This document shows, in pieces, positions 2,098-31,585 of a DNA stretch of 36,404 nucleotides. Origin of the DNA: a virus (taxonomy: Duplodnaviria > Heunggongvirae > Uroviricota > Caudoviricetes); the IMG/VR virus record IMGVR_UViG_2923344815_000003, positions 1 through 36,404 of that record. One strand, 5' to 3'. The translations under genes and the position numbers were made by a program. The notes beneath the pieces are model-generated. The model had not been told where the DNA came from and did no database searches. It saw only the letters and a program-made list of their open reading frames with translations. How positions within the stretch are numbered: position 1 is the stretch's first letter; every line of letters starts with the position of its first letter.

Positions 2098-3207
2098 TCA
2101 CTCTGTTTCCGCTATCCATTCCGGGATTTTTGCCTCAAGCTCAAGCTGCGTGGTAAAGCCGCTGTTATCAATGGTGTGCCCGGCTTTTGCAATAATCCAG
2201 TCCTGATTATCAATCTCGCTTTTAAATCCTGTTACCGTGCCATGCATTTCGGGGTAGAGTTCTGCTCGTCCACGTGCCAGCGTGATGGAGAATGATGCGG
2301 CTCCGCGTTGTAGTTGTTGCCACTTTGCCGCCGCTGCGCGTCTTGCTGCCTGCTCGTTCTGATAAGTCTTGCGTAACACAAACACATTGCCTTCCGCGCC
2401 TTCCATATAATCACCTTCACGGCTGCTGCTTTTCTCTTTTTTCGGTTTTGGCGGTTTGCGGCGTTTCACGCTGACTTTTTTCTTTTTCCCGTAATTAAGA
2501 TCAAGCCAGTAAGCGCGTACCCCCGTATACGCTTCGCGGTCAGCAATGCGGAACTGATGGCGATCGCCGCTGCTGCGTGTGATGGCGAACGATGGCAACG
2601 GCTGGCCCTGTGCGTTCACGCCACCGCCGGGCATGATGAATAACAGATTGCCGCTTTTTACCGTGGTGATTGCGCCCAGCATTTCCGCCATGCGCGTAAG
2701 GAAGGACATGTCGCTTTCTTCGGTCTGGTCGGCGTGGTCGATTTCGATATCCATCAGCATTTCGCTGATTTGCGGTTTCAGACCATACCGATGAGCGATG
2801 GCGGATACCACACGCTCAACGGTCACATCATGCCAGGACACCTCACGTTTAACGTTAAATTCATCCCGAAAATCTGCGCTTCTGGCTGAAACAGTCAGCC
2901 TGTCCGGCGGTCCTTCGTGAGCGATTTCATCAACAATGTAAGTGCCTTTTTCTGTCAGCGGTTCTCCTTTCCAGCCAATGAGAACCGTCAGGCGCGCGCC
3001 CCGTGGCGGTAGCAGCAACTGACCATCCGCATCATCCAGCGTGATGGTGAGCTGGTCCGCCTCAAATCCCCGGTTGTCGGTCAGTGACAGGCTCATCAGG
3101 CGCTCTGCCACGCCTGACAGCGTTTTACCCTCCGCGAGAATATCAAAATCCGGCATTTTTACGGGGTCTGTGCCCTGACTGAGCAATTGCATGGTGGTGT
3201 CGGTCAT
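2098..3207 (-). CDS. D: P2 gpD-like tail protein (late control D)
   Basis: Track ORF 2098-3339; likely start at 3207 (MTDTTMQLL...) preceded by AGGGAGGGAG RBS; sequence typical of gpD family. Confidence 0.85.
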   Translation of the reverse strand: MTDTTMQLLSQGTDPVKMPDFDILAEGKTLSGVAERLMSLSLTDNRGFEADQLTITLDDADGQLLLPPRGARLTVLIGWKGEPLTEKGTYIVDEIAHEGPPDRLTVSARSADFRDEFNVKREVSWHDVTVERVVSAIAHRYGLKPQISEMLMDIEIDHADQTEESDMSFLTRMAEMLGAITTVKSGNLLFIMPGGGVNAQGQPLPSFAITRSSGDRHQFRIADREAYTGVRAYWLDLNYGKKKKVSVKRRKPPKPKKEKSSSREGDYMEGAEGNVFVLRKTYQNEQAARRAAAAKWQQLQRGAASFSITLARGRAELYPEMHGTVTGFKSEIDNQDWIIAKAGHTIDNSGFTTQLELEAKIPEWIAETE

Positions 3208-3364
3208 CTGCTCCCTCCCTGTGCGGCATGGTCGCATGTGCGTGCGGAGGGGGTTACTGCTTTTTGTTGTCGCCGTGGCGGGAGAACGGCGCAGGGGTGA
3301 GATTACGCGCGTGGTGGGTGATGATTGTTGCCGAATCATTTAACGGATACAAGGGGCTGAAGCT

Positions 3365-24262: not shown

Positions 24263-25308
24263 TGAGCAGAAAAAATAAAAAAGTGCGCATGAGTTCACGC
24301 ATTGATCTCGCTGATGCGCTCAGGAAAGAATCATCGCTCAGTGCATTCACATTTGATGGTCCTTATCGCCTGACCGGGCATGACCTGCTGGACAATATGT
24401 ACTGTGCTGATAACGGGCGGTGGTATGAAACCCCGGTGGACTGGTACGGTCTGGCAAGAGCCGCCCGGCAAACGTCCTGGCATCAGTCTGCGCTTTACTT
24501 TAAGCGCAATGTATTGCTCGGGTGCTACATCCCGCACCCGCTGCTTTCCCGGCAGGATTTCTCGGCGCTGGCGCTGGACTGGTTTGTGTTCGGTAACGCA
24601 TTCCTTGAGCTTCGGAGCAATATGCTCGGCGAACCGCTTAAATTACGGCACGCCCTGGCGAAATACATGCGACGCGGAAGCGATCTTGAATCATGGTGGT
24701 ATGTGCAGGATGGCAAGGACGCGTTTCAGTTTCGCCCTGGCAAAGTGTGCCACCTGATGAACCCGGATATTAACCAGGAAATCTACGGCATGCCGGAATA
24801 TCTCGGCGCATTACTCTCGGCCAGCCTGTCTCATTCGGCGGACATGTTCAGAAAACTGTATTACGACAACGGATCCCACGCCGGATGCATCATCTACATC
24901 GGTGCAGCGCAGGTAAACCGTGAAAGCATGGACTCCCTGAAAGAAACGCTACAGGGGGCACGTGGTGGTGGTGCGTTTAAAAACGTGCTCATTCATGCGC
25001 CCAACGGGGGCAAAGAGGGGGTGCAAATTTTGCCGTTCCAGCAGATCACCGCAAAAGATGAGTTCATGAATGTTAAGGCGGCGTCCCGTGATGATGTGCT
25101 GGCTGCGCACCGTGTTCCGCCGCAACTGATGGGGGCGATGCCGGGCGAAAAAAGTGCGTTTGGTGATGTGGAGAAGGCCGCGCGGGTTTATGCAATTAAC
25201 GAGCTGATGCCCGTTATGGAGGCCATGAAGCACATCAATGACTGGCTTGGCGAAGAGGTGATCCGCTTTAACCCTTACGCACTGTTAGACACCCCGCCCA
25301 CATCCTGA
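24262..25308 (+). CDS. Q: portal protein gpQ
   Basis: 348 aa, start overlaps P stop. Confidence 0.9.
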   Translation: MSRKNKKVRMSSRIDLADALRKESSLSAFTFDGPYRLTGHDLLDNMYCADNGRWYETPVDWYGLARAARQTSWHQSALYFKRNVLLGCYIPHPLLSRQDFSALALDWFVFGNAFLELRSNMLGEPLKLRHALAKYMRRGSDLESWWYVQDGKDAFQFRPGKVCHLMNPDINQEIYGMPEYLGALLSASLSHSADMFRKLYYDNGSHAGCIIYIGAAQVNRESMDSLKETLQGARGGGAFKNVLIHAPNGGKEGVQILPFQQITAKDEFMNVKAASRDDVLAAHRVPPQLMGAMPGEKSAFGDVEKAARVYAINELMPVMEAMKHINDWLGEEVIRFNPYALLDTPPTS

Positions 25309-25760
25309 CGCGCTTCGCTTGTCTGCTGCTTCGCCGGGGCATAAAAAATTTATGCCCCGACTCTCCAGCTCCTGTATCAATCAGATAATTTCACGACGCC
25401 TTCCAGCTTATTGCCATCATCGGCGGTCAGGTTCTTACGCAATCCCATCGCGCTGACTGCATGTTCTCGCCGCCTCAGTGCGATTTTGACGGCCTTATCT
25501 GCCACCCCATCAAATCAAAAGCCCTCACGTCTTTTTCACGCTCAGCGTGAGAAAGACAGCCATTCTGTTGTATCTCTGCGACATCGTTCAGGGAATGCTA
25601 TTTACCCCCTGAAACGCGGGCTGTTCCCCCGTCACCTGCGCGTAGAAAAAACGCGTTTTTTGTGCACGTACGGATCCTTGACGGATCCAGCCGCCACGCG
25701 GGCCGGAAGTACAAAAAGTCGTTCAAAAAAATTGTGCAAACTTGTGCACTATCGTGCAAA

Positions 25761-25790
25761 CAAAAAAAAGCGCCTTATCGGCGCTTCAAA
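25761..25790 (-). terminator. rho-independent terminator downstream of ORF 25795-26064
   Basis: aagcgcc / ggcgctt stem, T8 tract on the minus strand. Confidence 0.55.
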
Positions 25791-25794
25791 AATA

Positions 25795-26064
25795 TCAATT
25801 GTTGCTGTGTATTAATCGCCAACCACGAACATATGCTTCATAAGCATCTCTGTGCCTTACAGTTCCAGCCTGGCTAAACGGAATGTTAGCTAAAACTAAA
25901 TCATTCTGAGCCATAGCGCGTCCTTCAAGCGCATCTTTTATGCCTAGCTCAAAAGCACAGGCAGCGCATTTGTGCCGACCTTCTTGTCCTTGATATTCAG
26001 GGAGAGACAGAAATGTTGGGTTATAACGATGAGGGTTCTTGCAAATACCTGTTTTAGCCCGCAC
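25795..26064 (-). CDS. hypothetical protein (Cys-containing), cos-proximal accessory locus
   Basis: 89-aa ORF with GTG start and GAGG RBS, or a 39-aa product from Met 25914 with GAAGGA RBS; own terminator downstream. Confidence 0.4.
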   Translation of the reverse strand: MRAKTGICKNPHRYNPTFLSLPEYQGQEGRHKCAACAFELGIKDALEGRAMAQNDLVLANIPFSQAGTVRHRDAYEAYVRGWRLIHSNN

Positions 26065-26087
26065 TTTATTTACCTCATAGGAAAAAT

Positions 26088-26174
26088 ATGCGTGCCTTTA
26101 CAGAGGTGCGTGTAAGCAATAAAATATACGACGCACATTTTGATTTACTTCGGAAGGCACGCATATCAGGTTAA
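26088..26174 (+). CDS. candidate 28-aa small ORF enclosed by a 13-bp inverted repeat
   Basis: AGGAAAAAT RBS then ATG; MRAFTEVRVSNKIYDAHFDLLRKARISG; arms atatgcgtgcctt (26086-26098) and aaggcacgcatat (26154-26166); could instead be a non-coding RNA. Confidence 0.3.
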   Translation: MRAFTEVRVSNKIYDAHFDLLRKARISG

Positions 26175-26195
26175 GTGAGTCCGACCGAGTTCTAC

Positions 26196-26229
26196 GCCCC
26201 AATAGTTGCTGCTATTGGGGCGTTTTGCA
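26196..26229 (+). terminator. rho-independent terminator (plus strand)
   Basis: gccccaatag / ctattggggc stem, then gttttg. Confidence 0.5.
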
Positions 26230-26428
26230 TGGACAATGCCGCGCAATTATCTTGTCGCTCACAATGCGAACGATCTTACAAAAAGGCACATTACTGTCAA
26301 GATAATTGATCGTTTTAATCGATAGATAATAGACAATCTATTTGTTTAACAGATCGATTATTGAAGTAAGTGCGCCAAATGGAATGATACTGTTTCTATA
26401 AATGTGAGCATTTTTCGCGCAGATGCTT

Positions 26429-26740
26429 TTACTCAGGAAATAACGCCCGGATATTCCCAGCCATCTGGCTGGTTATCTTAGCCACTGGTGCAGACTGTGC
26501 TTCAAACTTTTTTGAGCTGATTTGTGTCACAGGTAACATCTCATCATCAGCCCATGCGGCCAGTCGGTAAGCCTCTGCCGGATTCGTCTTCAGAAGTGCC
26601 AGCCCGGCCAGAAAAGCCACGCGTTGGCCGCTTTTGCGGGCTTCTGGTGTAAGGCTGTCCAGCCAGGCGCATGCTTCTCCTTCGTTCTTGACGGCAGCTG
26701 GCTTCAGATAGAAACTTATTCTTCTGGTTGGTGTCGTCAT
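26429..26740 (-). CDS. parR: ParR-like centromere-binding adaptor
   Basis: 103 aa directly downstream of the ParM-like gene; ISFYLKP...WLDSL...AFLAGLAL resembles the ParR N-terminal region as I recall it. Confidence 0.65.
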   Translation of the reverse strand: MTTPTRRISFYLKPAAVKNEGEACAWLDSLTPEARKSGQRVAFLAGLALLKTNPAEAYRLAAWADDEMLPVTQISSKKFEAQSAPVAKITSQMAGNIRALFPE

Positions 26741-26744
26741 TGGT

Positions 26745-27704
26745 TTACTCCTTGTTCATTGCGTACAGCCCATTAACCAGAGCAAAATGTGGCACCCCGT
26801 CCGTGATGAAAGTCGCATTAACTCCGCAGGCTTCGCGGATAGCGGGTGCCACAATCTCCGCCCCTCCACCGACAACCATCACCCGCCCGTAACCGGAAAA
26901 ACCCGCCAGCGCGCGGATCACTCGTTGTTTCAGTGTCTCCTCCTTTTCACGAATAACCGCCATCAGGCTGTTGTAATGCGCGTCATTGTGAATGTGCTGG
27001 CGCAGCCAGGCTTCATCGTGACGGTGCTCAATAATGGTATTGGCGATGTGGTGACTGGTACGCATACCGTTAGTGGCCATCACCGACAGCACGGCATCAG
27101 CCATCAGGGAAACGCCTACGTGTGGATCGCAAAACACCTGGCTGATACCTGCCAGCTGCCCCTGAACCTTTGCCACATCCAGCGTGGTTCCGCCCAAATC
27201 CACAATCAGCAGGGATTCAAACGGACTCATGTCAGCCAGTGCCTTAAAGCCAGCCGGAATGGATTCAGGCATAACCCGCACGTTACGGATAGTGAATGCT
27301 TCGCCGTTCTGGTACTCCACCGGGCGCATAACGTTCGCTTTTTTGCGGTTGATGTTGGCTATGTCCGGCTGTGCGTTTGTGTCGAAATACTCGCTCAGTG
27401 GCAGGGTGACAACCACATCCACCTCCTGTGGCGTGATGCCTGATTTGACCAGCGCGTGATGAATGGCAATGACATTCACATCACTGTACTGGTATTGCGT
27501 GTCGGTCGTCTGGACAAAGCGATCGCTGACCGGATCAAAACCATAGCGCACGCCATCAAGCATGTAGTTCGCGGGCTGCGTGTCACCGAACGGCGCAGAC
27601 CATTCCGACTTGAAGCTGTTCGGGCTGATGGCGTTGCGGCGTTCGCCGTTCTCAGTCCATGCCAGCTTGATGTTGGTGGAGCCGTCGTCGATACAAATTT
27701 TCAT
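26745..27704 (-). CDS. parM: ParM/StbA-family actin-like segregation ATPase
   Basis: 319 aa; MKICIDDGSTNIKLAW, ISPNSFK, YSDVNV, DLGGTTLDV, VVGGGA actin-fold motifs; close to plasmid R1 ParM along the whole length from memory. Confidence 0.85.
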   Translation of the reverse strand: MKICIDDGSTNIKLAWTENGERRNAISPNSFKSEWSAPFGDTQPANYMLDGVRYGFDPVSDRFVQTTDTQYQYSDVNVIAIHHALVKSGITPQEVDVVVTLPLSEYFDTNAQPDIANINRKKANVMRPVEYQNGEAFTIRNVRVMPESIPAGFKALADMSPFESLLIVDLGGTTLDVAKVQGQLAGISQVFCDPHVGVSLMADAVLSVMATNGMRTSHHIANTIIEHRHDEAWLRQHIHNDAHYNSLMAVIREKEETLKQRVIRALAGFSGYGRVMVVGGGAEIVAPAIREACGVNATFITDGVPHFALVNGLYAMNKE

Positions 27705-31263: not shown

Positions 31264-31442
31264 GGTGTGGCCTCTACGTGTGTAAGTTTTGAAAACTCAC
31301 CATCCAGAGCTGCGAAACTGTGGGTGGCGAGACGTACGAGGTTCGCAGTACCGGCAAACGCAGAACCCGGCCCGACCGAAGTCGGCCCCGTACGCCCCAC
31401 CATAATTCTGATGCGAAAAAGACGTGGCGATACAGTACGCAC

Positions 31443-31463
31443 AAAAAAACCGCTGGCGCGGTT
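31443..31463 (-). terminator. candidate intrinsic terminator inside the early region (minus strand)
   Basis: accgc-gcca-gcggt hairpin followed by T7 on the minus strand. Confidence 0.4.
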
Positions 31464-31585
31464 GTGCGCTACGTTTGTCAGCGGGCTGCGAAACCCGGCA
31501 CCCGTTTTATGAGGTGCAGCGGAAATGTAACCTGACTGATTGCGGCATGGCAAGCGGTTTTTTTGTGTGTGCATGTTCTGGTTTC

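Follow-up and report, generated by a model that had tools for sequence, protein, structure and literature searches.

A predicted cis-antisense RNA control cassette with an uncharacterised cargo gene in a P88-like Escherichia coli prophage and related phages

Background

When a short open reading frame (ORF) is enclosed by a perfect inverted repeat, followed by a GC-rich hairpin and flanked by genes on the opposite strand, which strand and which molecule does the structure serve? Such a unit lies at 26084-26229 on the plus strand of the IMG/VR record IMGVR_UViG_2923344815_000003 (36,404 nt; this whole stretch of analysed DNA is called the window below). The original prediction described it as a ribosome-binding site (RBS), a 28-codon ORF within a 13-bp inverted repeat and a terminator, and proposed either a small regulatory RNA or the mRNA of a structurally sequestered small protein. 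Our comparison with related loci points to another arrangement: the unit is probably part of a convergent two-RNA cassette, in which a predicted cis-antisense RNA would remodel or destabilise the leader of a neighbouring 89-aa gene and so keep that gene off, with an architecture like that of type I toxin-antitoxin (TA) systems.

Results

Genomic setting of the locus

The window represents an E. coli prophage of the P88-like type (Xuanwuvirus, P2 family). Escherichia phages 520873 and 503458 match the region at 98-99% identity, and it was found at an identity of at least 99% in 164 of 5,426 complete E. coli genomes (166 genomes match in all). Since only two of the matching genomes carry a copy below 99% identity, there is no covariation to be read within the E. 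coli lineage. Homologues were drawn from phage and plasmid records, 80 viral contigs and 80 genome contigs; related loci are cited by L numbers where they have to be told apart.

On one side of the 365-nt gap that contains the unit is a StbB/ParR-like partition gene (26429-26740), on the other the 89-aa ORF (25795-26064), the only ORF that RefSeq annotates at this locus (as a hypothetical protein). Both neighbours are on the minus strand, and the unit is thus antisense to them, as originally described. Between 25500 and 26900 the promoter scan found exactly two sigma-70-like promoters, which are convergent. The features are as follows.

25767-25787, minus strand: intrinsic terminator of the 89-aa gene (terminator scan)
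25795-26064, minus strand: the putatively regulated gene, encoding an 89-aa protein of phrog_3941 (PHROG match, E = 6e-49)
26065-26266, minus strand: predicted 5' leader of the 89-aa gene mRNA, with 5' hairpin, hairpin 1, helix 2, Shine-Dalgarno (SD) sequence and GTG
26086-26166, minus strand: leader helix 2, formed by the arms of the 13-bp repeat (repeats, folds, equivalent helices in relatives)
26088-26174, plus strand: 28-codon ORF, judged not to be a gene (promoter position, no conservation, no family match)
26097-26125, plus strand: predicted antisense RNA promoter, TTTACA-17-TAAAAT (promoter scan, pattern uniqueness, relatives)
26131-26229, plus strand: predicted cis-antisense RNA of ~97 nt (promoter geometry, folding, analogous RNAs of relatives)
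26194-26226, plus strand: putative terminator hairpin and UUUU tract of the predicted antisense RNA (repeats, folding, covariation)
26244-26308, no strand assigned: 11-bp perfect inverted repeat bracketing the sense promoter, a possible operator (repeat search)
26273-26300, minus strand: predicted promoter of the 89-aa gene, TTGACA-16-TAAGAT (promoter scan; counterpart in 16 of 18 representatives by pattern)

The terminator of the 89-aa gene (25767-25787) has A and T runs on either side and is potentially bidirectional. The plus-strand hairpin was also considered as the terminator of the terminase/portal operon. We rejected this because a terminator-like site belonging to that operon lies at 25638-25656 and because the 89-aa gene, which is convergent, and its terminator come in between. 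At the left edge of the window are three tandem tRNA genes on the plus strand (152-224, 282-352 and 368-451). Just downstream of the stbB/parR-like gene, the segment 26310-26400 holds repeated ATCGAT and TAGAT/ATCTA motifs, common to the L043-L047 phages, which may serve either partition, as a centromere-like site, or regulation.

The inverted repeat and the 28-codon ORF

The elements first described on the plus strand are all there. The arms of the 13-bp repeat, at 26086-26098 (ATATGCGTGCCTT) and 26154-26166 (AAGGCACGCATAT), are 100% complementary and 55 nt apart; among perfect inverted repeats with arms at most 120 nt apart this is the longest in the entire 36.4-kb window, and simple arithmetic gives a chance expectation of ~0.05 for such perfect repeats. 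RNA folding, which had been proposed as a check, yielded -59.3 kcal/mol for the plus-strand segment (149 nt; z = -6.0 relative to shuffled sequences). The ORF at 26088-26174 (ATG, 28 aa) is present with its ATG within the left arm, as is an RBS-like AGGA 5 nt before the start.

A ~150-nt plus-strand transcript (26084-26229) encoding a 28-aa protein, its RBS and start codon sequestered by the 13-bp helix, would make use of ORF, AGGA, repeat and strong plus-strand fold alike, and it would suit the sole substitution inside the ORF among close relatives, which is synonymous (TTA to CTA in L013). However, several observations argue against it: i) no plus-strand promoter was found upstream of 26084 within 25500-26900, the sole plus-strand promoter being inside the ORF; ii) no ORF comparable in position or sequence was found in any of the 16 related lineages (0/16), and in one of the 16 related groups any antisense ORF of 15 codons or more is lacking; iii) the 28-aa product had no Pfam, PHROG or NCBIfam match; and iv) the apparent RBS is merely the complement of a sense-strand UCCU adjoining the real SD. 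With its start codon upstream of the only plus-strand promoter, no counterpart and no family match, the ORF is judged from its sequence to be spurious and not a gene. We regard the idea of a structurally sequestered small-protein mRNA as very improbable: the repeat is best read as a helix of the minus-strand leader (see below), and the ORF has no counterpart in relatives.

An antisense promoter and a predicted plus-strand RNA

The plus-strand promoter consists of a -35 element TTTACA (26097-26102), a 17-nt spacer and a -10 element TAAAAT (26120-26125), with 10 of 12 consensus matches. It is located between the repeat arms, and its -35 overlaps the end of the left arm. Because the promoter is inside the repeat, the predicted plus-strand RNA would contain neither the left arm nor the start codon of the ORF. 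The pattern TTTACA-N17-TAnnnT has a single occurrence in the window (both strands), versus 0.13 expected. Given promoter and hairpin, the RNA is predicted to extend from ~26132 to ~26228 (~97 nt) and to comprise a 5' single-stranded tail, an imperfect stem-loop (~26149-26189) and the terminator hairpin.

In relatives, the antisense element (TTTAC[A/T], exactly 17 nt, TAnnnT) was present in 45 of 45 unique related upstream regions and in further lineages; in the phage-borne relatives it stands 47-65 nt ahead of the conserved Cys codon of the family gene. Its -10 reads TAAAAT, TAGACT, TAAACT, TAATCT, TACAAT, TAGAAT, TAGTAT, TAACCT, TAGTCT, TACGAT or TACTCT: T1, A2 and T6 are invariant while the interior and the spacer diverge freely, a pattern that is the signature of a promoter. 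Moreover, the element is absent from distant homologues (other phyla, plasmids), which argues that it is not a by-product of the coding sequence. Analogous RNAs are predicted in all relatives, with lengths of 73-84 nt (143 nt in L068). The 5' stem-loop is more stable on the antisense strand in 25 of 32 unique sequences and on the sense strand in five, these sequences not being phylogenetically independent, and the antisense strand has a U-rich stretch ahead of the hairpin and a tail starting with U after it. A small plus-strand regulatory RNA that ends at the 26194-26226 hairpin is well supported as a prediction. The regulatory RNA first proposed is upheld in this respect by the comparative evidence, but its anatomy has to be redrawn, as the promoter is inside the repeat.

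The putative terminator hairpin

The hairpin at 26194-26205 / 26212-26223 (hairpin 1) has 12 perfect pairs and a 6-nt loop; as a terminator, its stem of 12-13 bp (-22.7 kcal/mol) is followed by four U only (GCGUUUUGCA). The claim of a canonical intrinsic terminator at 26196-26229 is accordingly right about the strong GC stem but not about the tail: with four U, the site was not listed by the consensus scan, which requires at least five T in eight. The same hairpin also forms in the minus-strand leader, there without a following U tract. Every relative has a GC-rich hairpin 33-45 nt past the predicted start (63 nt in the window and 105 nt in L068), and the tail after the hairpin of the relatives is UUUCCCUUAU-like. 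Given such tails and the short U tract, the efficiency of termination is uncertain.

Covariation, proposed with the original prediction as a check, was found in the related cassettes: in an alignment of 33 RNAs, nine of ten hairpin pairs show compensatory double changes. A test of strand preference favoured the antisense strand by 19 to 13 (among sequences that are not phylogenetically independent), and one change in the L046 hairpin leaves a pair on the antisense strand alone, in the form of G-U. RNAalifold on MAFFT alignments captured the terminator and missed the 5' stem-loop and the sense helix; because of register shifts in these alignments, per-sequence folds and an explicit structure were used instead. 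Between near-identical relatives the loop of hairpin 1 is inverted while the stem is unchanged (CGGCAA/TTGCCG in L003 vs L053; CGCTAAT/ATTGGCG in L067 vs L069), which suggests loop flipping by recombination within the hairpin.

The repeat as a helix of the minus-strand leader

Read on the minus strand, the 13-bp repeat forms helix 2 (RNA arms AUAUGCGUGCCUU / AAGGCACGCAUAU), whose 5' arm (26166-26154) and 3' arm (26098-26086) surround an inner hairpin together with the whole antisense promoter and its start site. The 5' arm underlies the predicted antisense RNA; the 3' arm stops 9 nt upstream of the SD (26085-26077 between). Every lineage has a sense-strand leader helix of this kind, with a 3' arm starting from the AAAG of GUAAAG and a 5' arm under the antisense RNA, and a helix enclosing the antisense promoter appears in the minimum-free-energy folds of most representatives. 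The arms themselves vary by lineage: GAAUGUUUU / AAAGCRUUC; GGGCUUUA / UAAAGCCC; GGUUUUACAUGUGAUCACC / GGUGAUCUGUGUAAAGCC; GAGGUGU / ACACCUC. At the position equivalent to the repeat, relatives thus have a helix with other sequences.

When the explicit structure was applied to 20 sequences, 83.8% of cells were paired, versus 38-52% with the partners slid, and U-G wobbles at two pairs (in 19 and 8 of the 20 sequences) are possible on the sense strand only. In 19 of 23 representatives the helix-2 segment folds better as sense RNA, a modest preference, like those of the other strand tests, and uncorrected for phylogeny; the window is among the four exceptions, its own segment folding better antisense, and its inner-hairpin loop measures 55 nt versus ~6-19 nt in most groups. 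On this comparative evidence, the 13-bp repeat is best read as the form that a conserved helix of the minus-strand leader takes in the window, and not as a plus-strand RNA structure.

The cassette in relatives

The layout is shared by all phage-borne homologues examined, in Enterobacterales and Orbales, with genera that include Escherichia, Salmonella, Enterobacter, Pantoea, Yersinia, Providencia, Proteus, Arsenophonus and Gilliamella. Its order is sense promoter, 5' hairpin, GC-rich hairpin 1, spacer, helix 2, invariant GUAAAG and start codon, with an SD-sequestering hairpin between GUAAAG and the start codon in many groups. The window has this architecture: an antisense promoter, the GC hairpin, then a sense promoter, and a downstream gene from the same protein family. 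On the other hand, the window RNA escaped a covariance model built without the window's lineage (7.7 bits, E = 2.5, with the terminator as the only matching part), so that it is architecture and synteny, and no detectable homology of the RNAs, that relate the window to the other cassettes.

The cassette occurs in P2-like, P22-like and lambdoid prophages, at classic sites for accessory genes: beside cos, after cI, or in the interval from Q to the lysis genes. An 18-nt core has 24 true occurrences in viral contigs (two of 26 matches, in L181 and L184, were rejected as chance): 23 precede the family gene, and one precedes a Bro-N antirepressor-type gene. In the latter case (L176, ~2330-3300), an L003-type promoter/leader/antisense cassette lies ahead of a 233-aa Bro-N protein, and there is no phrog_3941 gene. 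This modularity of the cassette fits a tight off-switch for genes harmful in lysogens.

Cassettes of relatives (L003, L076-L091, L002, L068 and others) contain 3-5 GATC sites, versus ~1 expected, and these occupy three conserved places: one ahead of the sense -35, one at the +1 of the antisense RNA (GAGATCTC) and one within the spacer of the antisense promoter. The window has two GATC sites only, both at the sense promoter, and its antisense promoter is without GATC. As a sequence pattern, the enrichment hints at Dam-dependent control in the relatives.

A different upstream region precedes the homologues of Enterobacter, Klebsiella and Citrobacter (L005 1830-2000; L118, L120, L121, L135, L138, L152). 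It carries a strong antisense terminator (AAGCCGGGTTCATgcaaATGAATCCGGTTTTTTT) and TTTACA-17-CACAAT, and may represent a second, diverged type of antisense cassette.

Leader folding and a proposed switch

The predicted sense start at ~26266 gives the 89-aa gene a leader of ~201 nt that contains both hairpins; the gene starts with GTG at 26064, and its SD GAGG (26076-26073) is 8 nt upstream. Complementarity between the predicted RNA and this leader is perfect over the upstream two thirds of the latter, beginning with hairpin 1 and extending to helix 2, where the 5' arm is included, and leaves the RBS uncovered. When the antisense-covered segment was masked in partition-function folding of the window leader, the unpaired probability of the start codon fell from 0.35 to 0.05, while that of the SD was 0.54 free and 0.48 bound. 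In the masked fold, GUGCG at the start codon is bound by CGCAU from the released 3' arm, and AGG of the SD by CCU. Start-codon unpaired probability fell similarly in six other groups; the effect was little or nil in L058, L060, L076, L081, L087 and L091 (small in L087) and reversed, with the unpaired probability going up, in two Gilliamella groups. An SD-sequestering hairpin is evident in many relatives. The closest relatives (L043-L047), with a P2-like context and hairpin 1 as in the window, show a clear three-way switch in their sequence, a textbook anti-anti-SD / anti-SD / SD arrangement: the 5' GAGGUGU pairs with an anti-SD ACACCUC, and the anti-SD, once released, can pair with the SD UGAGG.

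The cassette could then work as follows. The TTGACA-16-TAAGAT promoter would transcribe the 89-aa gene with a structured leader of ~200 nt, while TTTACA-17-TAAAAT, inside the leader, would drive an opposite-strand RNA of ~97 nt ending at the GC hairpin. Pairing of the antisense RNA would open helix 2 and free its 3' arm. Through CGCAU this arm would bind the region around the GUG start, and the CCU immediately after the arm would bind AGG of the SD; RNase III cleavage of the long RNA duplex is an equally plausible route. By either route the 89-aa gene would be silent in the lysogen. We infer the direction of this effect (gene kept off) from thermodynamic folding.

The promoter of the 89-aa gene is bracketed by an 11-bp perfect inverted repeat (26244-26254 / 26298-26308; CAATTATCTTG / CAAGATAATTG), and in relatives the -10 region is inside a palindrome, e.g., CTGGATAnTATCC. 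The repeat and these palindromes may be operators, possibly for autoregulation.

The 89-aa protein family

The family, phrog_3941, is one of unknown function. It is large, comprising 1,662 clusters at E <= 0.001, with members of 84-92 aa and invariant C8, H12, R30, H31, C36, S64, Q65, R70 and H71. The 89-aa protein is basic, hydrophilic and Cys/His-rich and has no membrane segment. Its AlphaFold model is confident (pLDDT 85), and a structure search with this model found no structural relatives; Pfam, NCBIfam, PADLOC and a PDB sequence profile were uninformative about function. Outside Enterobacterales, the upstream same-strand neighbours include a D12 (Dam-like) methyltransferase in 13 of 45 cases and an N6/N4 methylase in 8 of 45, and the downstream same-strand neighbours a DpnII (GATC) endonuclease in 12 of 38; moreover, three members from Bacteroidota are fused to a DndB (DGQHR) domain protein, being joined to its C-terminus (methylase, DpnII and DndB loci: L123 422-2660; L105 337-1761; L172 364-1761; L011). 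Given a hydrophilic protein without membrane segment, and homologues in ordinary operons, toxicity is not implied. In phage 503458 (NC_049341.1, ~24834-25625), where the DNA is 97.9% identical, tblastn aligns only residues 9-66, in two pieces, and the 89-aa gene appears to be disrupted.

Discussion

Comparison with known systems

A search of the window and 19 related loci against Rfam 15, at gathering and permissive thresholds, gave no match over the cassette; the Rfam matches in the window (tRNA, C4 and isrK) are all outside it. The P22 sar model (RF00262) gave 22 bits versus a 43-bit cut-off (E = 0.063), over the hairpin at 26194-26223 only. A literature search on phrog_3941, phage P88 antisense RNA, DpnII-linked small proteins and prophage type I TA systems found no account of the cassette.

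Convergent promoters are also found in IS10 RNA-OUT/RNA-IN, finP/traJ and EcoRI Rna0/Rna1, where the mRNA is bound at its 5' end by an antisense RNA that forms a stable stem-loop; in the promoters of IS10 and finP, GATC (Dam) sites couple expression to the methylation state. The cassettes of the window's relatives are likewise GATC-rich at both promoters. Unlike those systems, however, the window has an antisense promoter without GATC, and there is no transposase, conjugation or restriction gene at the locus.

The cassette shares several traits with type I TA systems (hok/sok, ldrD/rdlD, zorO/orzO, symE/symR, RalR/RalA): i) a small gene that has a promoter to itself and is preceded by a long, structured leader; ii) a constitutive-looking convergent promoter inside that leader, giving an RNA of 70-100 nt that ends at a hairpin; iii) an SD within local structure in many relatives; and iv) accessory slots in mobile elements. 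At the level of sequence prediction, the locus has the RNA antitoxin of such a system, with a promoter and a terminator of its own and complementarity to the mRNA. The cargo, by contrast, is 89 aa long and hydrophilic, while type I toxins are classically shorter than 60 aa and hydrophobic or membrane-active; no similarity of the 89-aa protein to known toxin families, SymE and RalR included, was found. Also unlike type I TA systems, homologues without an antisense RNA occur inside restriction-modification operons. RalR/RalA shows that a prophage type I toxin can be a soluble protein (PMC4041452). RalA, however, acts in trans via 16-nt complementarity, whereas the RNA predicted in the window is fully cis-encoded. 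With a non-classical protein, no Rfam match and a covariance model that failed to detect the window RNA, membership in type I TA is not established, and we classify the locus, as predicted from its sequence, as a cassette in which a cis-antisense RNA controls a cargo gene that is itself uncharacterised.

Phage immunity RNAs offer a second likeness. In P22 sar/ant, P1/P7 c4/icd-ant (RF01695) and lambda OOP/cII, a short, terminator-ended antisense RNA made from a promoter inside the target leader silences a dangerous phage gene. The layout of the P22 sar/ant antisense switch (Rfam RF00262; PMC2629481) resembles that of the window cassette. L176 uses the cassette for its Bro-N antirepressor-type gene, and a genuine c4 RNA is located elsewhere in the same prophage as the window cassette. 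On the other hand, sar overlaps the RBS of ant, whereas the RNA predicted in the window stops short of the RBS, and c4 acts in trans on repeated target sites, unlike the window cassette.

In the window the C4 antisense RNA (31320-31407, minus strand, 80 bits in Rfam) is directly followed by an isrK-like RNA (31443-31517, 70 bits), and this pair constitutes a P1/P7-type RNA immunity module in the same P2-like prophage. An imperfect 21-nt inverted repeat (31437-57 / 31550-70) lies around the C4/isrK module.

Alternative explanations

Could the minus-strand leader alone be functional? Its hairpins and helix would then be structures of a 5' untranslated region (serving mRNA stability, translational control or the binding of a protein or ligand), and the plus-strand promoter would be weak, silent or a source of transcriptional interference only. 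Helix 2 points this way, being a sense-strand structure with sense-only G-U wobbles and a more stable sense fold in 19 of 23, as do the 19 to 13 of hairpin 1 (not decisively strand-specific), the weak antisense terminator tails, and the fact that the invariant GUAAAG also belongs to the 3' arm of helix 2. What such a leader does not explain is that GUAAAG is invariant while its pairing partner changes between groups, and that TAnnnT stands exactly 17 nt away in every group despite the diverging interior and spacer, as in a promoter. Furthermore, the 5' stem-loop favours the antisense strand by 25 to 5, and the U-rich stretch before the hairpin and the U-start tail after it are on that strand. 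We therefore consider a function of the leader alone unlikely, and prefer the convergent cassette with a predicted antisense RNA.

The repeats might instead act as DNA. The 13-bp and 11-bp repeats would then be operators, for the 89-aa protein, a phage repressor or a Dam-sensitive factor, and the GC hairpin an insulator between the partition operon and the accessory gene. Perfect repeats do bracket both promoters, GATC clusters occupy conserved positions in relatives (3-5 versus ~1 expected), and the protein family is linked to genes for a GATC-specific methylase and endonuclease. But the equivalents of the 13-bp repeat vary in sequence, length and spacing and tolerate G-U wobbles and bulges, which fits RNA pairing and not a conserved protein site; nor is there a GATC at the antisense promoter of the window. 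Action at the DNA level is accordingly improbable. A broader version of the preferred two-RNA cassette would combine these threads into a widely conserved, methylation-sensitive switch: the Dam state at GATC-bearing promoters would select the antisense RNA or the mRNA, and the 89-aa Cys/His protein would be a new effector or regulator tied to methylation. We regard this version as distinctly unlikely. Just after entry or replication, DNA is expected to be unmethylated or hemimethylated. Were this version true, the 89-aa protein could be a toxin (soluble, of type I), a factor of abortive infection or one of anti-restriction, to name examples, carried in prophage defence hotspots.

Conclusions

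The locus shows how easily such units can mislead, a common trap: where a short ORF is enclosed by a perfect inverted repeat, the repeat can reflect a structure that belongs to the opposite strand. If confirmed, the cassette would add an RNA family missing from Rfam, a cis-antisense RNA paired with a conserved leader helix, in prophages of Enterobacterales and Orbales. It also flags the cargo, a family of more than 1,600 clusters that has no Pfam domain and is linked by its neighbourhood to GATC-specific restriction-modification. The elaborate post-transcriptional control of this family in phages suggests that its unregulated expression is costly.
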